A DNA stretch of 64,000 nt from a virus (lineage: Duplodnaviria; Caudoviricetes). Position 1 is the stretch's first letter, and the number at the start of each line of letters is the position of its first letter. The stretch is from positions 1 to 64,000 of the IMG/VR virus record IMGVR_UViG_3300035208_004516. One strand, written 5' to 3'. Positions 35,609 to 55,422 of the stretch are shown here, in pieces. Position numbers and translations under genes: made by a program. The notes beneath the pieces are model-generated. The model was not told the DNA's origin. It saw only the letters and a program-made list of their open reading frames with translations, and did no database searches.

Positions 35609-36292
35609 TTATTGATAAGATAAAATTACATTCTTTAAAGCAGTTTCAATTTTGTAAAGATTTAATATGTAATTTTTATCTCGTTTATATAGTAAATTAC
35701 GTTGAGATATTTTTTTTTTGCATTCTGAATCCTTTATATATTTTTCTTTGAACCATTTTAAAGATCGTTGTAATTTTTTTCTTCTATATTCTGGATCAGT
35801 TGCATATCTTTCTTTCATTCGTTGTAAATGTTTTCTTCTATATTCTACATTAGTTGCATATCTTTCTTTTGTTCGTTGTAACTTTTTTTTTCTATGTTCT
35901 GAATCAATCCAATATTTTTCTTTCTTTCTTTTGTTTAATTTTTTTCTGTATTCTGAATCAGTTGTATATCTTTCTTTCTTCTGTTGTGAATTTTTTCTTT
36001 TGTATTCTGGATCAGTTGCATATCTTTCTTTCTTTCGTTGTAAATGTTTTCTTCTATATTCTGGATCAGTTGCATATCTTTCTTTGTTTCGTTGTAACTT
36101 TTTTTTTCTATATTCTGGATCAGTCTCATATCTTTCTTTCTTTCGTTGTAAATGTTTTCTTCTATATTCTGGATCAGTTGCATATCTTTCTTTCATTCGT
36201 TGTGAAATTTTTTTTTTATATTCTGGATCAGTCTTATATTTATTTTTGCGCCAGTTTTTTATATATTCTTTCCTATAATCTGAAATTTTCAT
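35609..36292 (-). CDS. Highly basic protein of 18-aa (54-bp) tandem repeats
   Basis: About 10 copies of KERYATDPEYRRKxLQRx. Confidence 0.75.
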   Translation of the reverse strand: MKISDYRKEYIKNWRKNKYKTDPEYKKKISQRMKERYATDPEYRRKHLQRKKERYETDPEYRKKKLQRNKERYATDPEYRRKHLQRKKERYATDPEYKRKNSQQKKERYTTDSEYRKKLNKRKKEKYWIDSEHRKKKLQRTKERYATNVEYRRKHLQRMKERYATDPEYRRKKLQRSLKWFKEKYIKDSECKKKISQRNLLYKRDKNYILNLYKIETALKNVILSYQ

Positions 36293-36434: not shown

Positions 36435-36710
36435 TTACTCGATAACTAGCTTTATTCGGTTCAATCTCCTGATTCTTCCCATAGTTGTGTCTATCCATCC
36501 TTCTATTACTATTTCTCCTGTATGTACCTTATCATGACATGTACCACATATGCTACTTATATTGTTTGATTGATTGTAATGTTCTACTCTTCTTCCATTT
36601 AAATGATGTGTTATTAATATTGTCTTAGTTTTACATATGTCACATGTTGCATTTCCACTTCGGTTCATCTTTGATCTTATTGACATTGTTATTGTTGTTT
36701 TTCTTTTCAT
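36435..36710 (-). CDS. Small HNH-like protein
   Basis: CDIC...THHL...N...CGTCHDKVH. Confidence 0.6.
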   Translation of the reverse strand: MKRKTTITMSIRSKMNRSGNATCDICKTKTILITHHLNGRRVEHYNQSNNISSICGTCHDKVHTGEIVIEGWIDTTMGRIRRLNRIKLVIE

Positions 36711-37459
36711 TCTATTTTCCTTGTTAACAGTTAGATTAGTGGAAGTGTATGCCTTTAAAAAAATTTATAATTATATAAATCGTTAAGTAAAAAATTGTTT
36801 CTTGTAATTAAAAATAATTTAGTGGAGGAGATATGAATGAAAACCAAATTAATTTAAAATAGAATTGTCAAAAAAGATTTGATAATTGCTATAAAGGAGT
36901 CAGTAAAACTTTATTCTCATTATGCAGTTTTATTTAATCAGTTTGACGGAGGAAAAAGATTACAGTTTTGTAATTCTGAAAAATGGGTTGAAAAATTAAT
37001 AAACTAAAAATATATCAATGTAGAAAATTAGTTTATAAGAAAGTATAATATATGGATGTGTTTATAATAGTTGGAACTACTGTATTTTGTCTTGAACATT
37101 TTAAGAATAAAGTTAACTATCTTGAAAATTTTTTAGCGGCTTTAATATGTGGTCTAATGTATCCTATAATTTTAGGAATTTTGTTATGTAATATAATACT
37201 ATTGTTGGAAAAGATAAATGAGAAAATCAATGTAATAAGAAGAATAGATGATGAAGTTAATAATTAAATTTGTAGTAGTGATACTTGTAATTAGTTTGTC
37301 ATTTGTATTCTTAAATCCATCTCTCAAAAAAAATGATATGTTGTGTCTTGTATATGGACATTGTAAATTTAAGCCTTTAAAAGATGTTAGTAAGAATTAT
37401 GAATTCAAGTGTCTATTTCAGATTCTCTTAAAGATATTGAAGGATTTGTTTTAGTTAAT

Positions 37460-40400
37460 ATAAATGTATAATGTTAATAAGTTATTAGAAATGAAAAAGT
37501 AAAATTCGTTGTTGTTGATGATAGTAAGATTTCTTGGTCTCCACTTGTCGTAATTCAAAATTAAGCCTTTTAATGCGTTGTTGGTTGTTTAGTAGGATAT
37601 GGTATTCATTCCTTTATATTTTGGTTATTATATTCTGTGGTTTTGTTTTTTAAGGGTGTTATAGTTTTTAGTTAGTCCGTTGTAAGTAATTATAGTTGAT
37701 CCTTTTTGAATCCGAGATGAGTAGTTCCTTTAAAAACCATTGTAAGTAGAATTGAAAAATTTTATAAAAAAATTTTTATAGGGTGTACTACTTATTATTA
37801 TCCCTATATTTTTGAAATTATAATCTACAAGCTCCTATAATGTCACTTTGTTATAAAATTCATTTTCAAATTTCAAAAAATAGGAAAATCTGAGGCAGCT
37901 ATTAGATCACGTACTTTTACACCCTACGGGGTTACAAATCAAACATATCTTAGGCTACGGGGGCCACCACCCTCTACTACAGTTCTAACTGAACTTATTA
38001 GATACCAAAACAAACATCTAAAACTACTCATCACTTAATTAACAATACGGGTTTATAAAATCCACATAGTCATAAATCAAAACAATGATGATACATACTT
38101 TTTTAATATGAGTAACAAGAATTGATCCAGTTTTTTTATCATATTTTATTTCCTAAACATTTAATATGAATTTTGATAAGTACAATTATATTGATTATTT
38201 AGATACATAACCTAATTTGTTTAACTTTATAATAATTTGTTGTTTTTTTGAATTTCTTGTTTTAAAATCCATGAAACTCCCATAATCATCTCTTTTAAAT
38301 ATATCACTATTTTTATGATATTTAATTTTCAATTGTGGGTAGTATATATAATAAGCTTTTATTTTTGCGCGACTGATACACAGCATGAATAAAAGAGCAG
38401 ATATTTTTTTTCTTTATAACATTGAGCTAATGCATAATCATTAATTTGTTTTTGAAAATGATTTATGATCATTAGATGTTATTCATCCCCTATGAGTAGT
38501 TTATTTTCTATTATCTTAATTCTGGTCATAATTAATTTCCTTCTAATTTTTTGTGTAGAAATAAGACTATACTATTTAAATTATATCTACAATACTTAAT
38601 CCACCCAAGATATTATATTATCTATAACATCTTGCAACCACCCATCTTAATAAAACTATATAGGACAGCGTTTGGTTATTGACCGATCTATACTACTTAT
38701 CCTGTAGCACCTATAATCATCTTAAAATAAGATAACAGAATTAAATTTCCTTAATAACTACTTAAAGTTATTTAAAATCTACTCTATATAATTTATTCAT
38801 TGAAACATATAAGATCGAATTATTAATAAAAAATACAATTCATGAAACAGTATATGAAATATGTATAAACCACCAACAATGGCATTATAAGAGCTTGTAG
38901 AGGAATTTAAGTAAATAAAACAATGACTTTTCTATATAGGTCACAATGAATTTAATAAAAAATATAATAAGATAAACATTAAACAAACAAAAGAAATCTA
39001 GATTAAGTAGAAATTATATAGTTATTAAAAAAATTAATATGTATAATAAACTACTCTATCATTAAACCTTATATATAACAATCATTAATAAGTAACTAAA
39101 TTACAAAATCTATTTATAAAGGATAAAAAATTACTTCTTACTATAAAAACTTGTATATAAACCATAAGTAAAGTATATAAATTCAATAACATCTTGTAAT
39201 ATAAATAACCCATAATAAAGTAGACCATTTATAATAATTTTACTTATAACTATCCTTATTATATAAACAATGACTTCTCCATATAGGTTTCAATGATTTA
39301 ATCTGTTATAAAGTAGTTATTAAAGCAACCTTGAAATCTTATCTCTTTATCCTTATCATTCAATGACTTTCCTATATAGGTCACAATGATTTTTATTTTC
39401 CACTTTATTACTCATAATTTTCTTGTAAGTAGTTGAACTTGTAAGCCGTTACAGAAGAACTTCTTTTAAAAACCTTTTTGATTGATCTATCCATTCCACT
39501 CCATTTCTGTTTTAAAGTGGTTTAATTTAATAATTATTGTGGTTCAATGACTTTCCTGTATAGGTCATCATGATTTTTTATTTTCCTTTGTTAAGTAGTT
39601 TGTCTTCTGATTATCTTGAATGTGTTTTCTGTTGAGTAGTTGATAGTTTTGATTTGTTAGTTGTATAATATGTGTAACCACTTGAACTTGTTAGCCGTTA
39701 TCCAGTTTTAAGTTTTATTCCATCTATTTTTGTTTTTTGTAAAATATTTGTAAGCCAGTATCTAAGTTTAAATTAAGTAGAGTAGTAAAATAGTGATTGA
39801 TTTGTGATAAGATAGAATATGAAAGGATCTGGCTTTCTGTAAAATATTTGTAAGTAGTTGTATTTGTAAGCCAGTATCTAAGTTTAGATTTGGATTGGTG
39901 ATGGGATTTAGATGAGTAGAAATAAGGGTTTTGGAGCAGTTTTAAGTAGATGATAGATTGTGATAAGTAGTCTTTTAACTTACTCTGAGTAGAACAATCT
40001 CTCGGACTTCTACTCACAAATATCTACTCATTAGCAATCAAACAGAATCAAAAACGACATAACAACAGATTCATTAACAGATCAGAATCAAAAACAAAAA
40101 TCTGATTCTCAACAGAAATCAATCAATCTGAAAACTTGATCTTACAAACTGCAAAAAAACCAGGATACAAGAATCAGAAACTACTTATCAAGGATAACAG
40201 TATTATATAGCTACTTAGCAGAGTCAAAAACTAACAAACTCAAAAAACAAACAATAATTAAGAAAATAACATAAAAAACAAAGATAGGACTATATAGACA
40301 GGAGACAACAAGAAAGATAACCAAGGATAAACAACACTAACAAAACCACATTAAACGACTTAAAAGGGATAAAGGAAGATATACAGGACTTACTTTGAAT

Positions 40401-40480
40401 ATAGGATCACTGTTATATATATAAATCTTTGAATATAGGACTTTATTCAACAAACTAATTAAATCAACAGAAAGGAGGGA
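37460..40480. other. ~3 kb largely non-coding region, origin or genome-terminus candidate
   Basis: No credible long ORFs, iterated repeats, strand composition flips near 40000. Confidence 0.55.
38921..39573 (+). repeat. Four copies of a 29-bp repeat CAATGACTTTCCTATATAGGTCACAATGA
   Basis: Copies at 38921, 39268, 39361 and 39545, with irregular spacing. Confidence 0.9.
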
Positions 40481-40483
40481 AAC

Positions 40484-41065
40484 ATGATAATATACAAAAA
40501 GTACACAATAGGGATAACATTTAGGATAGAAGTAGGATATTACGTACACAACACAACAGAAAGGATACAAAAGGACACATTATATTACATATCAGATATG
40601 CATCAACTTTTTATATTTACAAAAGAACCAATAGAAATAGAACTTAAGGATATAATCTTAATAGATTTAGAAAGATATAATAAACGATTAAACAACATAG
40701 GCATATATCCAGATCAAATGGAATTAAAAATATTAACAGTATATATAGGGGTAAAAGAAATAACTACCATAGGTACATACAGATTTATAACAACAAACGA
40801 TCCCAGAATGTTTTTTTCATCTAACTTAGTAGTGGATGAAACTACTATACCAGAGATCAACAAAAGATTTATAAGATTATTATCAACTGAAGGTCTAACA
40901 GAATATATAGTAACATGTTGTACATGTAATATAGACATAACAAAAACAACAGCACATTACTTAAAATATCCAGGATACTGTCCAACATGTTTAGGTGACA
41001 AAGGATACGAATCATACAAATCTATATTAGACGCACAGATAGCATACAAACTACTAACAACTTAA
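40484..41065 (+). CDS. Constant-tail Zn-finger paralog 1
   Basis: CxxC...CxxC then DAQIAYKLLTT*. Confidence 0.85.
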   Translation: MIIYKKYTIGITFRIEVGYYVHNTTERIQKDTLYYISDMHQLFIFTKEPIEIELKDIILIDLERYNKRLNNIGIYPDQMELKILTVYIGVKEITTIGTYRFITTNDPRMFFSSNLVVDETTIPEINKRFIRLLSTEGLTEYIVTCCTCNIDITKTTAHYLKYPGYCPTCLGDKGYESYKSILDAQIAYKLLTT

Positions 41066-41081
41066 CAAAGAAAGGAATTTA

Positions 41082-41684
41082 ATGAAGATAGAAGAAGCAT
41101 TATACTTTATAAAGGTAACATTTAAAGATCAAACAACTTTGGATACATTAACAAAATTGGCATTAAAAGAAAAAAGGACTAAACACTTCATAACAATAAA
41201 AAACAAATCATCTACACACTACACTAAATCTGAATTAGAATTTTATTATTATCATAGTATATATGAAACATTTCAACCTGAAATAGCATTAACACAATCT
41301 AAAAACCCTGCACATTATAGACATTTACATGAAACAATACATACTATCAATTACCTTCAAAACATAATAGAATCTTATTTACCATCAGAAACATACAAAG
41401 TAGAAACTGTATATAATTATATAATGACAGGCAAATTACAAATAATATCTAATTATATATTTCACAGTACAGATATTGAATCTTGGAGCATGATTCCATA
41501 CTCAGCAATAATATTTGAACACCTGCCGCAACTACCATTATACATATGTGACAACTGTCATATTTTAACATGTTATGGAACATCCATAGATTATGATCAT
41601 CATTTATGTTCAGTATGTAATAACACATCTAACGATCAAAGGATTAAAGACGCACAGATAGCATACAAACTACTAACAACTTAA
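41082..41684 (+). CDS. Constant-tail Zn-finger paralog 2
   Basis: CDNC...CSVC then DAQIAYKLLTT*. Confidence 0.85.
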   Translation: MKIEEALYFIKVTFKDQTTLDTLTKLALKEKRTKHFITIKNKSSTHYTKSELEFYYYHSIYETFQPEIALTQSKNPAHYRHLHETIHTINYLQNIIESYLPSETYKVETVYNYIMTGKLQIISNYIFHSTDIESWSMIPYSAIIFEHLPQLPLYICDNCHILTCYGTSIDYDHHLCSVCNNTSNDQRIKDAQIAYKLLTT

Positions 41685-41705
41685 CAAAGAAAGGGATAAG
41701 AAGGA

Positions 41706-42326
41706 ATGAAAATAGAACAACTTTACTTTATAAAGGTAACATTTAAAGACGCATTAACATTAGATACATTAATAGAAAAGACAATAATAGAAAAGACAAT
41801 AAGAAGGAAAAGTAATCAAAATTTTATATCAATAACAAACAAAAAGAACAAAGATTCCACTTGTTCTGAATTAGAATTTTACTATGATCGGAGCCCATCT
41901 CTGGCATCTCCATTTGCAATGGCATTAACTCAAACTGAAAAGCCAACACATTATAATTATTTACATGAAACAACAGATACTATCAATTACATCAGTAAAA
42001 TAATGGAATCTTATTTACCATCAGAAACATATAAAATAGAATCTGTATATAATTATATAATAAAAGGCAAAATCCAAATAATATCTGAATATATGTTTCA
42101 CAGTAGAGATATAAAATCTTGGATTATGATTCCATATAATGATAACAACACTAAAAGAAATATACATACACCATTATACATATGTGACAACTGTCATATT
42201 TTAACATATTATGGATCATCTAAAGGTAATAGTTATAATCAACATATATGCGCAGTATGTGATAACACATCTAACGATCAAAGGATTAAAGACGCACAGT
42301 TAGCCTATAAACTATTAACTACTTAA
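41706..42326 (+). CDS. Constant-tail Zn-finger paralog 3
   Basis: CDNC...CAVC then DAQLAYKLLTT*. Confidence 0.85.
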   Translation: MKIEQLYFIKVTFKDALTLDTLIEKTIIEKTIRRKSNQNFISITNKKNKDSTCSELEFYYDRSPSLASPFAMALTQTEKPTHYNYLHETTDTINYISKIMESYLPSETYKIESVYNYIIKGKIQIISEYMFHSRDIKSWIMIPYNDNNTKRNIHTPLYICDNCHILTYYGSSKGNSYNQHICAVCDNTSNDQRIKDAQLAYKLLTT

Positions 42327-42347
42327 AAGGACAAAGAAAGGGATTTA

Positions 42348-42938
42348 ATGAAGATGTACCCATATTACAATATAAAAGTAACATTTAAGAATAAGGAGAC
42401 TATAAATGAATTAAATAGATTACTAACATTTTACAAAGACACATTATTTAACAATTCTTCAAATCAACATTACACTAAATCTGAATTAGAATTTTATTTA
42501 AGCAAACCCTCATTACCAAGTCGAGAATTGACTCAAACTAATTATCCTACATATTATAGACAATTAAAAGATACAAAAAACGATTACAACTTAATAAGTC
42601 ACAAATTAGGAACTTATTTGGATTCTAACTCTTACAGAATAGACACTCTATTAAATTACATATTTATAGGTCAAATATACAACATATCTGAATACATGTT
42701 TTATTATATGCATATTGATTTATATACTATAATTCCATACAGAGGTGCAAATAGAGACAATTCATATGAATCACTATATGCATGTAATAAATGCAACATA
42801 TTAACAACGTCTGCTGAATATTATAATAACCACTTACATGAAATTGATGATCACCATTTATGTCATGTATGCAATGGGACCAGCAATGATCAAAAGATTA
42901 AAGATGCACAAATAGCATACAAACTACTAACAACTTAA
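42348..42938 (+). CDS. Constant-tail Zn-finger paralog 4
   Basis: CNKC...CHVC then DAQIAYKLLTT*. Confidence 0.85.
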   Translation: MKMYPYYNIKVTFKNKETINELNRLLTFYKDTLFNNSSNQHYTKSELEFYLSKPSLPSRELTQTNYPTYYRQLKDTKNDYNLISHKLGTYLDSNSYRIDTLLNYIFIGQIYNISEYMFYYMHIDLYTIIPYRGANRDNSYESLYACNKCNILTTSAEYYNNHLHEIDDHHLCHVCNGTSNDQKIKDAQIAYKLLTT

Positions 42939-42967
42939 CTATTTAAAAACAAGAAAGGAGAGAATAG

Positions 42968-43513
42968 ATGATAATAAACAAAAAATACTGCATAGGAATA
43001 ATAACAAAAGACATTAACTTCTGGAATCGTAATTGGGTAGACAACGATGGATATATGTTAACTAAGTTAACTAAGAACAAAGAATATATTTATTGGTTAA
43101 CTAGTAAATATAACACATTCAGATTATCTTTATATGAAACATTTTATGATGATTTACCAACATGTGAATCTATATATAAAGAATTTCATGAATATATAAC
43201 TACAATGGAATATACAGTGGATATTAATATTTACTCTATTTACATAAAAGTAAAGATACATGATATAGGAACATATAGATTTATAAAATTGAACTCTAAT
43301 AATGATGGTAGGAATACTACTATATTGGATGATAGAGTAGATTCAAACATGTATATTTATATATGTGATAAATGCGGAATTGATCTTAGTGATATAGATG
43401 TACATAAGGATTGTTATAAATCACATTGTCCAGTATGTAAAGAAGACAAAAATCACAAATCTTATCAACAAATAAGAGATGCTCAGATAGCATACAAACT
43501 ACTAACAACTTAA
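42968..43513 (+). CDS. Constant-tail Zn-finger paralog 5
   Basis: CDKC...CPVC then DAQIAYKLLTT*. Confidence 0.85.
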   Translation: MIINKKYCIGIITKDINFWNRNWVDNDGYMLTKLTKNKEYIYWLTSKYNTFRLSLYETFYDDLPTCESIYKEFHEYITTMEYTVDINIYSIYIKVKIHDIGTYRFIKLNSNNDGRNTTILDDRVDSNMYIYICDKCGIDLSDIDVHKDCYKSHCPVCKEDKNHKSYQQIRDAQIAYKLLTT

Positions 43514-43531
43514 CAAGAAAGAAGATAAATA

Positions 43532-44065
43532 ATGATGATACAAAAGAAATACATAATAGGAATAACAACTCAAGATACAAAGTTCTGGAATTACAAATGG
43601 ATGGATGAAGATACGTATTTAACAAAAAGCACTAATAAATATATCATTTATTTTTTATATTTTCAAAATGACAATATGAAACTATCTAAAAATCCAACAT
43701 ATTATTACACAAGTATAAACTTATTAAAATCTCGAATTGTAGAATTTAATATGTTTCTATTAATCAACAATTATAAAGCAGATGTTAAAATATATACTAT
43801 TTATATAAATATACCATCTATTTATAACATAGGAATATATAGATTTTTCACAATTGAATATAATACTAGACATATAATATTAGATAATAAGATAGATTCA
43901 ACGTATACTCATATTTGTGATAAATGCGGAATTGATCTTAGTGATATAGATGTACAGATGGATTGTGATAAAGCTTGTTGTCCAGCATGTAAAGAAAATA
44001 AAAACCACAAATTTTATCAACAAATAAGAGATGCACAATTAGCATTAAAATTAATTAATTCGTAG
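43532..44065 (+). CDS. Constant-tail Zn-finger paralog 6
   Basis: CDKC...CPAC then DAQLALKLINS*. Confidence 0.85.
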   Translation: MMIQKKYIIGITTQDTKFWNYKWMDEDTYLTKSTNKYIIYFLYFQNDNMKLSKNPTYYYTSINLLKSRIVEFNMFLLINNYKADVKIYTIYINIPSIYNIGIYRFFTIEYNTRHIILDNKIDSTYTHICDKCGIDLSDIDVQMDCDKACCPACKENKNHKFYQQIRDAQLALKLINS

Positions 44066-44077
44066 AAAGGAGAACGT

Positions 44078-44606
44078 ATGAATACAATGCAAATGAATGG
44101 TATACATTTAGATATAGGATGTGGATATGGAAAGATTCAAGGATACGTAGGGATGGATAAAAAGATATAAAAGGACATGTTGATATAGTTCATGACATGG
44201 AAACATTTCCATATCCACTCAGCTCAGATTCATGTGAAACTATCAGATGCAATCAAGTAGTAGAACATTTAAAACCATGGTTAATAATGGACATATTTGA
44301 TGAAATGTGGAGAATACTTATAGAAACTGGAAAGATATACATAACAACACCAGTAGCTGGATCTTTTCTATTTGAATTAGATCCAACTCATACAAAAGGA
44401 TGGACTAAGAACACAATTCAATATTTTGATCCAAGGAGATTCTTATATTCAATATACAGATCAAAACCATGGTTAATAAGATCTATAGAAGAAAAAATGA
44501 CATATTAACATTTATAATAGAAAAGATATCAGAAACAGAAGGTGACAGACTATACAAAGAATCTCAAATAAAAGGATTTGATAAAGAAATAAAATTGATA
44601 CTATAG
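44078..44606 (+). CDS. Class I SAM methyltransferase with two poly-A frameshifts
   Basis: HLDIGCG..K..GYVGMD, DIVHD...FPYP, VVEHL, DE.WRIL...G, DPTH; indels near 44160 and 44495. Confidence 0.75.
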
Positions 44607-44617
44607 AAAGGAGATAA

Positions 44618-45154
44618 ATGATAATTAGTCATGGAATGAATTTTTTAAAAGTAAAATTTCACAATTTAAATCTTTTAAAATGGTTAATTAATTCAGATAT
44701 AATAAAAATAGAAACTAGCAATGGGGAAGGATATATTAATGAGTTACAAATAGATCCAATATCAATAAGAAGAAAAATTGAATATACCAATAATTATTAT
44801 ATATCAACTTCACCTCTTAATTTTTCTCATGTTATTGCATTATTGACTTATTATTGCAAAAAGGAAGATTTGGATATAAACGTAGGATTTTTATTTCATT
44901 CTTATTATTATACATTAGTAACTGTTGGAAATTATGAATTTATTATAGAATCTGAAGTACCTAATCATTTTGAATCCTATCAAACTACTAAAAATGAAAT
45001 AACCATATGTACACAATGCAATATTAATGCTAGTAATATAACTTACGATACTCAAGATTTTGATTGTATATGTGATGTATGTAGAAATAAAAAAGTAAAG
45101 GATAAGGAGAAAATAAAAGCTGCACAAATAGCATATAAACTGATATATCAATAG
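44618..45154 (+). CDS. Constant-tail Zn-finger paralog 7
   Basis: CTQC...CDVC then AAQIAYKLIYQ*. Confidence 0.8.
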   Translation: MIISHGMNFLKVKFHNLNLLKWLINSDIIKIETSNGEGYINELQIDPISIRRKIEYTNNYYISTSPLNFSHVIALLTYYCKKEDLDINVGFLFHSYYYTLVTVGNYEFIIESEVPNHFESYQTTKNEITICTQCNINASNITYDTQDFDCICDVCRNKKVKDKEKIKAAQIAYKLIYQ

Positions 45155-45164
45155 AAAGGAGAAT

Positions 45165-45689
45165 ATGAAAATATCTAATAAAGCTATAATAGAATGTATT
45201 TTTGAATATAATAATTTAAAAAGATACATAGACAATTCTGATATTGAATTAAGTGATGGAGTCATATTACCTGATAAAAAATATATAAAATTATACTATC
45301 ATTACATAAATTCTACCTCATACGCATTTAGAATCGATGCTCGATGCTGTACAATGTCTAATAAATCTGATTGTGAAATTATTAAAAAAAGCATTACAGA
45401 ACAATTCATATCAAAGAATATTAAAGCTAACATTAAAATTTCATCAATAGTCTGTTTACCAGGGAAATTATACACAATAAATAATTATAGATTTTGTAAT
45501 ATATATGAATCTTTAAATGGAGATATGATAAAAACAAAATATCATATTTTAATATGTGATAAATGCGGATTGATAGATTATCATATGAAAAATAGAAGAT
45601 ATCAAAATATATGCGAATCATGTATTGGACAATCTAAAAATCAAAAATTGAAAGATGCTCAACTTATATTTGAATTGATGCGTCAATAA
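45165..45689 (+). CDS. Constant-tail Zn-finger paralog 8 (most diverged)
   Basis: CDKC...CESC then DAQLIFELMRQ*. Confidence 0.75.
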   Translation: MKISNKAIIECIFEYNNLKRYIDNSDIELSDGVILPDKKYIKLYYHYINSTSYAFRIDARCCTMSNKSDCEIIKKSITEQFISKNIKANIKISSIVCLPGKLYTINNYRFCNIYESLNGDMIKTKYHILICDKCGLIDYHMKNRRYQNICESCIGQSKNQKLKDAQLIFELMRQ

Positions 45690-47056
45690 AAGGACATTAA
45701 TATGTTAGAAAATAAAACACAAGATGAAATTTGGGAAATGAGAACTGATGAAAATTGGGAAGTGAGAGGAGAAGTTGTAAACAAACTAGAAGGAGATTAC
45801 AAATTAGCACATCTTTTATTAGAACAATAAAATTAAGAGGAATATAAAAAATGCAACGAATAACTACGATATTATTATGCATGATAATTCATACACTTTC
45901 TGCTAATAATTTTTATATTGATATGACTCAAGAATATGCAAAAAGAACATTGATTAATAAAAACATACAATATGAACATTTAAAATACAACAAACTTAAT
46001 TCTGATATTGAATTTTTTTATTACAATAAAGGATATTTCATTAAACAAAGATTATCTTTTATGAATGGGGCATGTGTGGATATAATAGACATGTTAAAAA
46101 TTGGCAAAGGAAATTTAAGTAATAAACTTAAAAACTTTAAAATTATTAAAAAAAAGAAAGGGGAATGGATAATTGAGGTAAATTATGAAACTTATAAAAT
46201 ATTTATTTCAGAATCAACAAAAAAAATAATAAAAATAGAACCAGTAATAAAAACTACTTAGAAAAAAACAGGAGACAACTATGACAACTAAACAAATCAT
46301 TCAATATTTAACATCAGAAATACCAGAAGAAGGGGTATTTAACAAAAATCTTTTACTAAAATGGTACAAAGAATGCAACATAGAATTAGTATACAAATAC
46401 ATTATTTTTAAAAAGAATTTATGCAGAGTATTAAACAAAGAAATTAAATTATGGAAACGTATAAAAATTGACAATAAATATAATATTTATAAAAAACTAA
46501 TATAAAAAGAAAGGAAAAACATGAACTGGATTATAGTAATAACTAAAAACGACAGAAAACCTATGCAAAAATTTTTAACTATACAAAAAAATAATGATAT
46601 AAAAAAGATATGTGAAAACACATCTATACAATATCGAGATCATGATATTATATTAGTACTTGAACATTATAGCAAACTAAATACATTTTCTAGATTTAGA
46701 ATGATATGGAAGAATGGAGAATTACAGAAAGAATTTAATTTTCCAGAAGATCTTTACATTATTAATACTGAGCAGAACAAAGTTGCTTGGAAAGAATTAT
46801 TAATGAATTTTGAGTTAAAAAATAAAAATTAAAAGAGACTAAAGAAAGGAATTTACCATGCTAGAAGAAATTAATGATTATTTTAAATTCAGAGAACAAC
46901 AAATTATTGGTTCTAATCCTATAATTAGAAACAAGATAACGCAAACAGATTTAAAAAGAGTTGATAAAATAAGTTTATTAGAAAAAGTAATTTTATTTGA
47001 TTCATACGAATATACAGAAGAAATCGATATTATATTAAACAGAAAGGTAAAAGAAT

Positions 47057-48232
47057 ATGAATATCACGGAAGAAATTAATTATTACATTGATATATTTCT
47101 TGATAATTTTCAAATGATGTGTTCAAAAGAACATGCAGATGAACTTATAACTGCCCACATTGAAAATCTATTAACAGAAAATTATGAAAAGAAGATATCA
47201 AAAAAAGAAACATATGCAGAATTAAGAAAAAGTATTTTGGTTATAAAAGTGATAAACAAAATCACAACTTATTTAATAATAAGATTCAATCGTAACAAAG
47301 ACAAACAACTTCTTAATTTTGAATATCTAAGAATCTTTTTTATATCTGATAAAGATGGAGAAGGTAATACAACTAACAAAGGCACCTTCTTTGTCAAATT
47401 TCCAGACTTATTTACTACTAAAGTATTTATAATATTATCTCATGTATTGGATCGTATAAATTTAAGATTAGACGAAAAGAAAACAAAAACGATAAGATAC
47501 GCTGGAGAAAAATTCCCAGACAGAATAGATGCTTTAGCAGAATTATTAGAGTCATGTAATTTTTTAATAGATGTATATCATTCTACGGAACAAAATGATA
47601 GTATATCTTCAATAGAGTATGGATCATTCCTTGGACACATAACAACAACATTTATTAAAAAATACAATCGTCCATTCATATTTGTGTTTTGGAAAACATT
47701 TATTGATAATAAATTACTAAGAGATGATCAATTGGAAAGAATTTCAAAATCTCAAAAGTTAGAGGAATTAGAAAGATCATTTCTTAAAGATATAGTATCA
47801 ATTATTTCTACAGAAGATATAAAAAGTGTTAATAAAGATCAAAATTTAACACAGATTTTTACTAAATCACTAATTAAATCTTCTAAAGCAAAAGTATCTT
47901 TCGGAATGAATAATGATGCAAAGATAACAGATTGCATTCAAAAAATGAGAGTATGTTTTATAGAAAAAGAATTCGATTTATTCTATCATGGAAAGAAATA
48001 CTATCTCATGTTAATATATTCATTTCTTATAAACAATGGAAAAATAGAAAAGAATGAACATCAATGTATAGAAAGTATAAGAAAAATCGAACCGCCTTGG
48101 CCAAAAGGGACTCCATATTGGTTAGGTATTTTTCCAGAATTAGATTCTGAAAATACTGAATTTAGAAAAGCATTTAATGATGCTTGCAACGAATGTAAAA
48201 AAATATTAAATGAGGAAGGAATTTATGAATGA
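47057..48232 (+). CDS. Hypothetical protein
   Basis: 391-aa ORF in operon context. Confidence 0.7.
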   Translation: MNITEEINYYIDIFLDNFQMMCSKEHADELITAHIENLLTENYEKKISKKETYAELRKSILVIKVINKITTYLIIRFNRNKDKQLLNFEYLRIFFISDKDGEGNTTNKGTFFVKFPDLFTTKVFIILSHVLDRINLRLDEKKTKTIRYAGEKFPDRIDALAELLESCNFLIDVYHSTEQNDSISSIEYGSFLGHITTTFIKKYNRPFIFVFWKTFIDNKLLRDDQLERISKSQKLEELERSFLKDIVSIISTEDIKSVNKDQNLTQIFTKSLIKSSKAKVSFGMNNDAKITDCIQKMRVCFIEKEFDLFYHGKKYYLMLIYSFLINNGKIEKNEHQCIESIRKIEPPWPKGTPYWLGIFPELDSENTEFRKAFNDACNECKKILNEEGIYE

Positions 48233-49524
48233 GAAAAATAAATAGAGTTCATTTTACGATTACAGGTGAATGGCTAACTTGGATGCTCAGACATTTATGG
48301 GTAGAAGGCAGTGAAGTAAAAGCTGTCAATGTATGGTGTGGAGCATTTCCCAAATTATCTAGTGAAAAAATAATCAAAACACATTTTCTTAATGTCGTGT
48401 CAGGCAGAAAGAAACTTGTTGGTAATAATGAATATGACCTTGTGGATGATGATAAAAAATATTGGAGTACATATCAAGATGGGGAAGAAAATACTGATTT
48501 TCCTCTACTTCAAAGTTGGGAAGATGTAATTCTCCTAAAAAAAGTAAAATTGTATTTTTCCGAGATGGATCTTCGAGCAGTCAGATTGAACAGAAGATTT
48601 GCCACTACTCAAAAAGGCAATGGAAATAATTCTATGAGATGGGAACAAGCGGTAGAAGAAAATAAGGTAGAAAATGTTTATCGCAAACACGTAAGTGATA
48701 ATTGGTCAGAAATCAGGAATTTAACAATGCGTTTGAAAATGGATCTGGATTTACAAATACTTACAGCACCTGATGCTCCACTTCCTGTTACTCTTACATT
48801 CAATACCAAAAAAGCATATTTTTCTAAATCTCAAAAAATTAATGGAAACATCGATCAATGTTTTAATTTACAAGATGAGATTGAAGCGATTCTTACACCG
48901 ATAAGAATTTATTTTGAAACAAAATATGAAGGTCATATTCATATTAATGACACAATGAATTACAGTGGATTATCTCAGTTCAATAAATGGGATGTTGCCG
49001 CAGAAGAAAAACGAAGAGGAAAAGAATCAAATATTAGCAAATTAGCTCTTGAAGAACGAGATCAAGAGAATAAATCAGAATCTTTGATTGAAAAAGTTGA
49101 AAAGGGTAAATCTTTAGATGTTATGGCTTATGTCCATAATCTTCTTGAAGATAGCAAACGTGAAGATCGCTTTAAACCAGATCATCCAGAAAATACTAAA
49201 TGGACTTCAGGGTATATTGATAGAGAAGGAAGACTTTATGCATGTGCTGATTTACAGCATATTAATTTTGCTGATGAATTGTGTATACATTTCGGATTGA
49301 AACAAAAAGAATCGGATGAAGATGGACAAATTATATTAGATAATGTAGGATGGATAAAAATATCATTATTAAGATTTTTTTGGGAAGAGACTAAAAAAAT
49401 TACAGATTCTCAAAAAGAAACAATTTTAAAATATATGATAGCAAAAAAAATAAAAAAGACTCTTTTTAATTCTATATCATCATATAATTTAAAAACATTT
49501 GATGAACAATTTAATTCAGAATAA
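48229..49524 (+). CDS. Hypothetical protein
   Basis: 431-aa ORF, ATGA overlap with upstream gene. Confidence 0.75.
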   Translation: MRKINRVHFTITGEWLTWMLRHLWVEGSEVKAVNVWCGAFPKLSSEKIIKTHFLNVVSGRKKLVGNNEYDLVDDDKKYWSTYQDGEENTDFPLLQSWEDVILLKKVKLYFSEMDLRAVRLNRRFATTQKGNGNNSMRWEQAVEENKVENVYRKHVSDNWSEIRNLTMRLKMDLDLQILTAPDAPLPVTLTFNTKKAYFSKSQKINGNIDQCFNLQDEIEAILTPIRIYFETKYEGHIHINDTMNYSGLSQFNKWDVAAEEKRRGKESNISKLALEERDQENKSESLIEKVEKGKSLDVMAYVHNLLEDSKREDRFKPDHPENTKWTSGYIDREGRLYACADLQHINFADELCIHFGLKQKESDEDGQIILDNVGWIKISLLRFFWEETKKITDSQKETILKYMIAKKIKKTLFNSISSYNLKTFDEQFNSE

Positions 49525-50032
49525 GTATATTTATTGTATTTTATAATAAGAAAAAGAAAGAATATAAATTTTCTAATGTTGAAGAATTGAGTCGGATAGA
49601 TTTTAAATTAAAATATTTAGAAAAGATTTTTTTAAAAAATATAAATAAGGAATCTACTTATGAGTGAACTGTATTCTGAATTAGAAAAATTAGTTAATGA
49701 AAAAAAAGAAATACAAAAAATGTTAATTCAAAGTGACAACGCAATAAAGAACATAGAGAGATTGGTTATAGATACTAAATTGAAACTAACCAATTTGGGT
49801 CATTTTGATTCTAAAAATATAATTACTAAAAACAAAGGAGTTTAATAGAAGACACTTTATGGAGAAATGAATTTAAAAATATATTTAATTAAGATAAAAA
49901 GGAGGTACAGATATTATGCAGAAAAGTAATAAATGGTATAATGAAAAATTTCAGATATATTCTCATATCATTTCATATGGAGCAGTCTTAATGTGGATTG
50001 TATTAATGGTTGTAACTATAAGAAATTAAAAT

Positions 50033-55011: not shown

Positions 55012-55422
55012 TTATGGGTTGAATAATAATATTCCATTTGATCTATACAGATATCTACAATCTATATGAACCCAATTAGTATTTTTTTCTATAGCAGTAA
55101 CAAATGGAAATAATTCTTGTTTAGATATAATAATTTTTCTTATTTCCTCTGATGAATAACTATTTACATCAAAATCTATTGCTCTTCCAAATCTATGTTG
55201 TGAATATTTTGATCCAATAGATAGATCTCTATATCCTCTTTGAGAAAATGTTCCTCCCCATTTCCAATTATTAATAGTAATTTTTTTTCCAATATATAAT
55301 CTTAATTCATCAACGGTAATTAATATTCTTTCATCTAGTAATTTCCAAGAATCATTTTTTAATTCATTATATATTTTAGATGATACAAATTCTTCGATTA
55401 TAAAATTTTTACATATATACAT
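55012..55422 (-). CDS. Peptidase M15A-like Zn peptidase (putative endolysin)
   Basis: RGYR, SQHRFGRAIDF, WVHID. Confidence 0.85.
   Translation of the reverse strand: MYICKNFIIEEFVSSKIYNELKNDSWKLLDERILITVDELRLYIGKKITINNWKWGGTFSQRGYRDLSIGSKYSQHRFGRAIDFDVNSYSSEEIRKIIISKQELFPFVTAIEKNTNWVHIDCRYLYRSNGILLFNP

Follow-up and report, generated by a model that had tools for sequence, protein, structure and literature searches.

The first 64 kb of the 100,327-bp phage record IMGVR_UViG_3300035208_004516 in IMG/VR, hereafter referred to as the window, carry eight open reading frames (ORFs) of the + strand arranged head to tail between positions 40484 and 45689. They encode related proteins of 174-206 aa, each consisting of a variable body, a zinc ribbon, and a nearly constant C-terminal tail. 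Tentatively, with a probability of roughly 40%, this array is interpreted as a lineage-specific expansion of non-enzymatic binding proteins sharing one constant C-terminal interface. The record was estimated by CheckV to be ~51% complete, and the genome of this tailed, uncultured phage is therefore probably ~200 kb in size. Its G+C content is ~25%, at which stop codons are frequent. All family statistics reported below rest on this one genome and its eight sequences.

An alignment covering all eight proteins over their full length revealed a common domain order, namely an alpha/beta N-terminal domain (N-domain), a beta-hairpin with the motif [IV]GxYxF, a C4 zinc ribbon, a short polar linker, and an amphipathic C-terminal helix of ~15 residues. 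Invariant among the copies are M1, the Y and F of the [IV][GSN]xYxF strand, four Cys, and the A, Q, and L of the tail. The zinc ribbon follows the pattern CxxC-x15-22-CxxC, with a spacer of 17 residues in four of the eight copies, and binding of zinc is predicted from the four invariant Cys. Mean pairwise identity amounts to 22% over the first 130 columns, 26% in the YxF strands, and 31% in the zinc ribbon, whereas the last 15 columns reach 62% (73-93% among copies 1-5). This contrast between tail and body is real and far beyond chance. A preliminary description of this DNA had reported eight genes with individual ribosome-binding sites, each combining a variable body, a CxxC finger, and a tail reading DAQ[IL]AYKLLTT in genes 1-5 and drifting in genes 6-8; the ORFs, the Shine-Dalgarno (SD) sites, and the alignment bear this out.

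The divergence comparison by region suggested in that description was carried out and gave a pooled ratio of nonsynonymous to synonymous differences per site (pN/pS) of 0.39 for the tail, compared with ~0.9 elsewhere, where both site classes are near saturation. The D, A, and Q codons of the tail vary synonymously in copies 1-5 (GAC/GAT, GCA/GCT, and CAG/CAA), and copies 6-8 retain the pattern A-Q-[IL]-x-[YFL]-x-L using other codons. The low pN/pS value, the synonymous codon variation, and the recoding in copy 3 (four synonymous changes in the last eight codons) and in copies 6-8 together show that the peptide itself is selected. Judged by these codon patterns, the tail peptide is under purifying selection at the protein level.

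Regarding the N-domains, two sequence types do exist, as proposed earlier, but the true grouping comprises copies 1, 5, and 6 (subtype A) and copies 2, 3, and 4 (subtype B), copies 7 and 8 falling outside both. The strongly diverged N-domain of ~140 aa consists of two parts: in a profile comparison with hhalign, the first ~50 residues of the two subtypes gave no alignment, whereas the second half (PTxY, long helix, and YxF hairpin) aligned with an E-value of 0.005. Shuffling of domains or cassettes among the copies was considered and rejected, because zinc ribbon and linker fall into the same subtypes as the N-domain, indicating that the copies arose by whole-gene duplication. In the youngest pairs, the ratio of nonsynonymous to synonymous substitution rates (dN/dS) over the whole gene is 0.74, 0.61, and 0.54, with some windows exceeding 1. 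Copies 2 and 3 share 62% identity (whole-gene dN/dS 0.74), and copies 5 and 6 share 49%, the DNA of their zinc ribbons being 86% identical.

Subtype A is represented by copy 1 (40484-41065, 193 aa), which starts with MIIYKKYTIGI, ends with the tail DAQIAYKLLTT, and matched the family profile with an E-value of 5.7e-47; by copy 5 (42968-43513, 181 aa) with the same tail; and by copy 6 (43532-44065, 177 aa), featuring the drifted tail DAQLALKLINS. Subtype B, recognizable by the start MKI..YFIKVTFK, includes copy 2 (41082-41684, 200 aa; DAQIAYKLLTT), copy 3 (41706-42326, 206 aa; DAQLAYKLLTT), and copy 4 (42348-42938, 196 aa; DAQIAYKLLTT), the last having the longest zinc-ribbon spacer (22 residues). 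The outliers are copy 7 (44618-45154, 178 aa; tail AAQIAYKLIYQ; profile match E 5.4e-44) and copy 8 (45165-45689, 174 aa), which contains 10 Cys, has an isoelectric point (pI) of 9.0, and carries the most drifted tail (DAQLIFELMRQ). All eight are encoded on the + strand, and additional or decayed family copies were not detectable across the 100-kb record.

Each copy is preceded by an SD sequence of the AAAGGA(G) type located 6-10 nt upstream of its ATG, and the spacers between copies measure 10-29 nt, except for a gap of 552 nt between copies 6 and 7. Terminator-like sites were not found between the copies. Given the short spacers, the lack of intervening terminators, and the individual SD sequences, the eight genes are most likely co-transcribed and translated individually, each from its own ribosome site. 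The eight copies of the tandem array described earlier are all present, but the array is not continuous, since the interval 44066-44617 holds a frameshifted methyltransferase-like gene that is not a member of the family.

To place the family among known proteins, sequence, profile, and fold databases were searched. The eight-copy profile retrieved only the phage's own proteins from 5.8 billion protein clusters, and when 1.84 billion representative proteins were searched exhaustively with HMMER, the phage's own copies were again the only ones returned. Pattern scans of the IMG/VR and JGI metagenome contigs did not find the family outside this phage, and blastn against 50,697 phage records gave no match beyond it. 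Across these searches, the sole additional family-bearing sequence was the 8.5-kb ENA contig ERZ27247350 from a second assembly, which is 100% identical to window positions 41047-49546. The profile search of phage and metagenome proteins proposed in the preliminary description thus yielded only the phage itself and this identical contig. Searches of Pfam, PHROGs, NCBIfam, PADLOC, and PDB sequences produced, at most, sub-threshold generic zinc-ribbon matches. Weak matches to single-stranded DNA-binding proteins (SSB), HNH proteins, and ribosomal zinc ribbons were confined to the Cys knuckles, and the ClpX-type N-terminal zinc-binding domain (PF06689) was matched by one of the eight copies (E 0.0078), many other zinc-finger and zinc-ribbon families scoring equally weakly.

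Two named families were evaluated individually and rejected. The DksA/TraR C4 zinc finger (PF01258) is absent from the Pfam matches up to an E-value of 1; moreover, the spacer of the present family is 15-22 residues instead of a fixed 17, and its helix begins 8-11 residues after the second knuckle. For GIY-YIG endonucleases of the Seg/I-TevI type (PF01541), there was no Pfam match, and the alignment lacks the invariant Arg, Glu, and Asn. Pfam matches to ankyrin repeats, PRANC, or F-box were likewise not obtained up to an E-value of 1; neither helix-turn-helix (HTH) proteins nor any named nucleic-acid-binding family were matched, and no similarity to virion protein families was found. The earlier statement that the genes belong to no known family holds for the sequence, profile, and fold searches alike, and the family is, as far as the searched collections reach, an orphan specific to one phage lineage. 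The phage itself also stands apart, as close relatives were not found in IMG/VR, including with ATPase and RNA ligase queries. Its pseudopilin gene, considered as a clue to the host, gave distant matches in unrelated metagenome-assembled genomes and nothing closer.

An AlphaFold2 model of copy 5 (m5a1de5540421), calculated from the eight-sequence alignment, achieved a predicted local distance difference test (pLDDT) score of 80.6 and a predicted template modelling (pTM) score of 0.70. In this model, the N-domain comprises strands at residues 2-12, an ill-defined region at 25-40, further strands at 41-54, and a long helix at 63-80, followed by a three-stranded sheet at 85-108 including YxF, two short strands, the first knuckle, the zinc ribbon, the polar linker, and a C-terminal helix at 166-180 (pLDDT ~92). 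The model of copy 2 (m4992ec12a2b5) was poor (pLDDT 61.7), its C-terminal helix still being predicted with ~90. No significant fold match was obtained at the cut-off of E ≤ 0.001 using Foldseek, the best E-values being 1.0 against the PDB and 0.2 against BFVD. The leads from the ESM Atlas, GIY-YIG proteins (0.82-0.83) and assorted zinc ribbons (0.89-0.90), were in the noise range.

Several observations point to the interpretation of the array as a set of variable binders on a constant interface. The eight-copy alignment contains no invariant catalytic-type residue, and no invariant polar residue in the N-domain, which suggests binders rather than enzymes; the pI range of 6.2-9.0 likewise favours binders over nucleic-acid mimics. 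The N-domain evolves fast, while purifying selection at the protein level keeps the helix nearly constant. Conservation extends over eight consecutive tail positions, among them the polar D, Q, and K, so that all faces of the helix are covered; this is presumably more than a helix packing with one side would need. Moreover, the helix and strands forming the N-domain core have diverged to 20-30% identity and yet the tail is nearly constant, suggesting an external constraint rather than mere packing on the core. The dN/dS values of the youngest pairs and their windows above 1 resemble those of fast-evolving interaction genes. The helix would accordingly most likely serve as an intermolecular interface, contacting either a partner shared by all copies or the other paralogs, which would then form homo- or hetero-oligomers. 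The array would represent a repertoire of differing binding surfaces on one constant module, as large phages use for host interaction.

A number of points weigh against this interpretation. A helix that packs against its own domain would be just as consistent with the high pLDDT of the modelled helix and with the short linker (6-11 residues). The near-invariance of the tail is in part an effect at the DNA level, given the 24-nt identity seen in copies 1, 2, 4, and 5 (see below). Values of dN/dS around 0.6-0.7 can likewise result when constraint is relaxed following a duplication, and one genome with eight sequences provides no independent evolutionary replication. Finally, promoter-like sites occur at chance level and give no expression timing: 86 sigma-70-like sites were counted near the array versus 88.8 expected, and 15 sites with at least 11 of 12 matches were found genome-wide versus 12.1 ± 3 expected. 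A promoter-like site at 39640-39669 was discarded as timing evidence for this reason. Early expression and an anti-defence role, both suggested in the preliminary description, find no support in these results, and neither do adaptors that bring host targets to a protease, RNA polymerase, or export machine.

The proteins could, alternatively, be DNA- or RNA-binding regulators or structural nucleic-acid binders, in which the zinc ribbon binds, the helix caps the fold or dimerises, and the paralogs read different repeats of the leader upstream of the array. This possibility deserves consideration, even though we regard it as somewhat unlikely. In its favour, all copies contain a C4 zinc ribbon, the array borders on a leader with repeat families unique within the 100 kb, and the high pLDDT of the helix together with the short linker would suit a capping or dimerising element. 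On the other hand, the pI values range from 6.2 to 9.0, five of the eight copies being near neutral or acidic, which argues against typical basic DNA binders and, equally, against acidic DNA mimics. The lack of matches to HTH or named nucleic-acid-binding families, and the restriction of the SSB, HNH, and ribosomal matches to the Cys knuckles, also speak against it, and nucleic-acid binding leaves unexplained why the tail is conserved above the zinc ribbon (62% versus 31%).

Roles of this kind have been proposed for a comparable case. According to Iyer et al. 2021 (PMC7824862), the jumbo phage G of Bacillus carries ~35 zinc-ribbon copies that represent a lineage-specific expansion, and the authors suggested that these proteins act as transcription factors or as structural DNA-binding proteins. 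Both cases feature many diverged small zinc-ribbon paralogs in one large phage, the present one comprising eight copies with two CxxC knuckles in a record that is ~51% complete. However, the profile search of 1.84 billion representatives retrieved this phage's own copies only, and to that extent no relationship to the phage G proteins was seen. The family studied here furthermore adds an alpha/beta N-domain of ~130 residues and a strongly conserved C-terminal helix, and its eight copies reside in one array. Accordingly, a zinc-ribbon expansion in a large phage is a kind of finding already described, and what appears to be new is the sequence family and its combination of alpha/beta domain, zinc ribbon, and constant helix.

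A narrower version of the binder interpretation regards the helix as a portable tag that docks on one hub of the host or the phage, such as a protease, a sliding clamp, RNA polymerase, or similar, and the eight bodies as adaptors or decoys bringing targets to the hub or blocking it. We consider this version doubtful. The preliminary description had proposed variable recognition combined with constant docking; the architecture of a variable body and a constant tail was indeed found (62% versus 22-31% identity), but a general address tag was not, as no further protein encoded in the 100-kb record carries the tail motif, which always accompanies the zinc ribbon. In an exhaustive VIA fold search, the best rows for the model were ClpS chains (Z 4.7, root-mean-square deviation of 2.8-3.3 Å, 74-76 residues aligned, model residues 1-93), these values lying below the level that is meaningful for the tool; the resemblance is a lead rather than evidence of a protease-adaptor role, and Pfam gave no match to ClpS.

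C-terminal tails that dock on hubs are known from gp43, gp33, and gp55 of phage T4, which bind the gp45 clamp, from the bacterial SSB tail, and from beta-clamp motifs of the QLxLxh type. These are extended peptides on flexible linkers and belong to otherwise unrelated proteins. The present tail resembles them in being a short C-terminal motif on different proteins, and QIAYKL loosely resembles the pattern Q-h-x-h-x-h. It differs in that an amphipathic helix attached by a short linker is predicted for it, and in being confined to one family. The ankyrin/PRANC (F-box-like) families of poxviruses, with which the array had been compared, combine a variable recognition part with a constant C-terminal docking element. 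They, too, are multigene families of large viruses composed of a variable part and a constant C-terminal element, but ankyrin, PRANC, and F-box matches are lacking here, the hosts belong to another domain, and the fold is unrelated, so that the comparison is one of analogy only.

As a further explanation, the invariance of the tail could arise mainly at the DNA level, either because the gene junction is homogenised by micro gene conversion or unequal crossing-over, or because it acts as an unstructured A/C-rich translation leader or promoter-like signal for the next gene. Copies 1, 2, 4, and 5 share their last 24 nt and the stop codon (GCATACAAACTACTAACAACTTAA) without any difference. Comparisons of codons for the same residue match in 48 of 48 cases within this block, compared with 68% elsewhere in those genes, even though its codons TAC, CTA, CTA, and ACT are minority choices within the array. 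By this codon count, the 24-nt identity exceeds what protein selection and codon bias explain. A junction-like ACAAACTAATTAA..GAAAGGAGG is present in non-coding DNA 34 nt upstream of copy 1 (diverged junction version ACAAACTAATTAAATCAACAGAAAGGAGG), and an inverted near-copy of the tail junction is located at 39583-39603. The perfect KLLTT end is restricted to copies 1-5, and after each of these the next copy begins 16-29 nt downstream. The junction RNAs are unstructured (minimum free energy of -0.8 to -5 kcal/mol, z ~0), as expected of a standby site.

Nevertheless, an origin mainly at the DNA level appears improbable. Copy 3 keeps the peptide despite its four synonymous changes, and copies 6-8 preserve its pattern with different codons. 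In the seven residues preceding the identical block (QxIKDAQ), conservation is at the protein level and synonymous divergence is ordinary, 14 of 28 codons being identical. A conversion tract of ~30 nt amid saturated sequence would be mechanistically unlikely. As for a signal function, the SD sequence lies after the stop codon and outside the tail, and the junction motif is not enriched upstream of other genes.

It is highly unlikely that the array encodes internal or ejected proteins packaged into the virion, with the helix acting as a targeting peptide that docks the cargo bodies to the procapsid interior or the scaffold, although a variable body with a constant terminal peptide would suit such a role. 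A precedent is the internal-protein (IP) locus of phage T4, where variable neighbouring genes share an N-terminal capsid-targeting sequence of ~10 residues, which is cleaved after LxE by the prohead protease; at least one of the products, IPI*, is an anti-restriction protein. Encapsulin cargo-loading peptides dock cargo in a similar manner to these T4 sequences. The T4 locus and the present array have in common adjacent, highly variable genes with one short constant terminal peptide. Here, however, the peptide is C-terminal and helical, and the N-termini vary between subtypes and make up strand 1 in the model. Moreover, the 100 kb (the record representing ~51% of the genome) encode no other protein with this tail, no virion protein family resembles these proteins, and the array is situated amid small orphan genes, which make up all of its flanks, and far from the baseplate/tail-fibre block at 73-97 kb. 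This block belongs to the remainder of the record beyond the window, which holds baseplate-wedge, tail-fibre, and virion-protein genes. That the copies are redundant duplicates decaying neutrally, their shared features being residual ancestry, is scarcely credible: the dN/dS of 0.54-0.74 in the youngest pairs, the restriction to one phage lineage, and the broken methyltransferase gene inside the array would fit decay, but eight frames remain open over 174-206 codons at 25% G+C, the SD sequence, the four Cys, the YxF strand, and the tail are kept in eight of eight copies while other positions are near saturation, and decayed copies are not detectable.

The leader upstream of the array (36711-40483) is a repeat-rich, essentially non-coding region of ~3.7 kb without credible ORFs, which agrees with the non-coding region noted earlier in front of copy 1. 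It contains four copies of a hairpin unit of ~41 nt around the palindrome CCTATATAGG, starting at 38919, 39266, 39359, and 39543 (span 38919-39590, + strand). The third copy is predicted to form a hairpin of -8.7 kcal/mol (z -2.7) on the + strand, and the third and fourth copies are followed by T-runs, thus resembling AT-rich intrinsic terminators. The repeat families of the leader, including the CCTATATAGG unit, are local and absent from the rest of the 100 kb. CTTTGAATATAGGA is present as two direct copies (40392 and 40428; span 40392-40441, + strand), 34 nt apart, which flank TATATATATAAAT at ~45-90 nt upstream of copy 1; this pair is unique in the record and may function as an operator or promoter for the array.

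The 460 nt upstream of copy 1 (40020-40480, + strand) are strongly A/C-rich and G/T-poor, and contain three copies of CAGA[AG]TCAAAAAC at ~40046, 40083, and 40219. Judged by its composition, this stretch looks like a long unstructured leader. A patch richer in G+C at 37870-38010 folds mildly better than shuffled sequences (z -1.75 on the + strand and -1.2 on the - strand) and has no Rfam match; a structured RNA at this position is not supported. Rfam or tRNA matches were not found anywhere in the leader. Its left edge is occupied by two genes of the - strand, one encoding a 227-aa protein (35609-36292) with approximately nine tandem repeats of the type ERYATDPEYRRKxLQRxK and a weak match to a PHROG annotated as 'transcriptional regulator', the other being a Cys/His-rich, HNH-like ORF of 91 aa (36435-36710).

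The gene interrupting the array between copies 6 and 7 (44078-44508, + strand) resembles class I S-adenosylmethionine (SAM)-dependent methyltransferases but is divided between two frames, with motif I (LDIGCGYG) encoded in 44078-44170 and the remainder in the -1 frame (44161-44508). An A5G run (44159-44164) marks the overlap of the two frames, and slippage by -1 at this run would yield an uninterrupted, sensible methyltransferase. Its match to Methyltransf_11 (E 0.0019) was below the cut-off. The same split sequence is present in the second assembly (ERZ27247350), and the split could stem from a homopolymer error in the assembly, from the gene being a pseudogene, or from programmed frameshifting.

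Downstream of the array, a 431-aa orphan (48229-49524, + strand) is 81% identical to a protein of the 106-kb viral contig IMGVR_UViG_3300037067_017690. This contig, the only one sharing the gene, has two proteins in common with the phage in total, the second corresponding to window positions 55012-55422 (46%), and does not carry the array. The 431-aa gene appears to have been exchanged between unrelated phages.

Large phages devote much of their genome to fast-evolving, lineage-specific paralogs, the functions of which are unassigned and which are prime suspects for host takeover and counter-defence. The array represents an unusually clean case of this kind, as it comprises eight copies, a delimited constant element (four Cys and the 15-residue helix), and a hypervariable N-terminus. 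Its present value is limited by its occurrence in a single uncultured phage, and tests would need gene synthesis and a surrogate host. If docking on a hub proved true, the array would be the bacterial-virus counterpart of the poxvirus ankyrin/F-box strategy on a new fold, and, should the tail prove to be a docking element, phages would provide a documented example, built on a new fold, of the design principle 'one anchor, many heads'.

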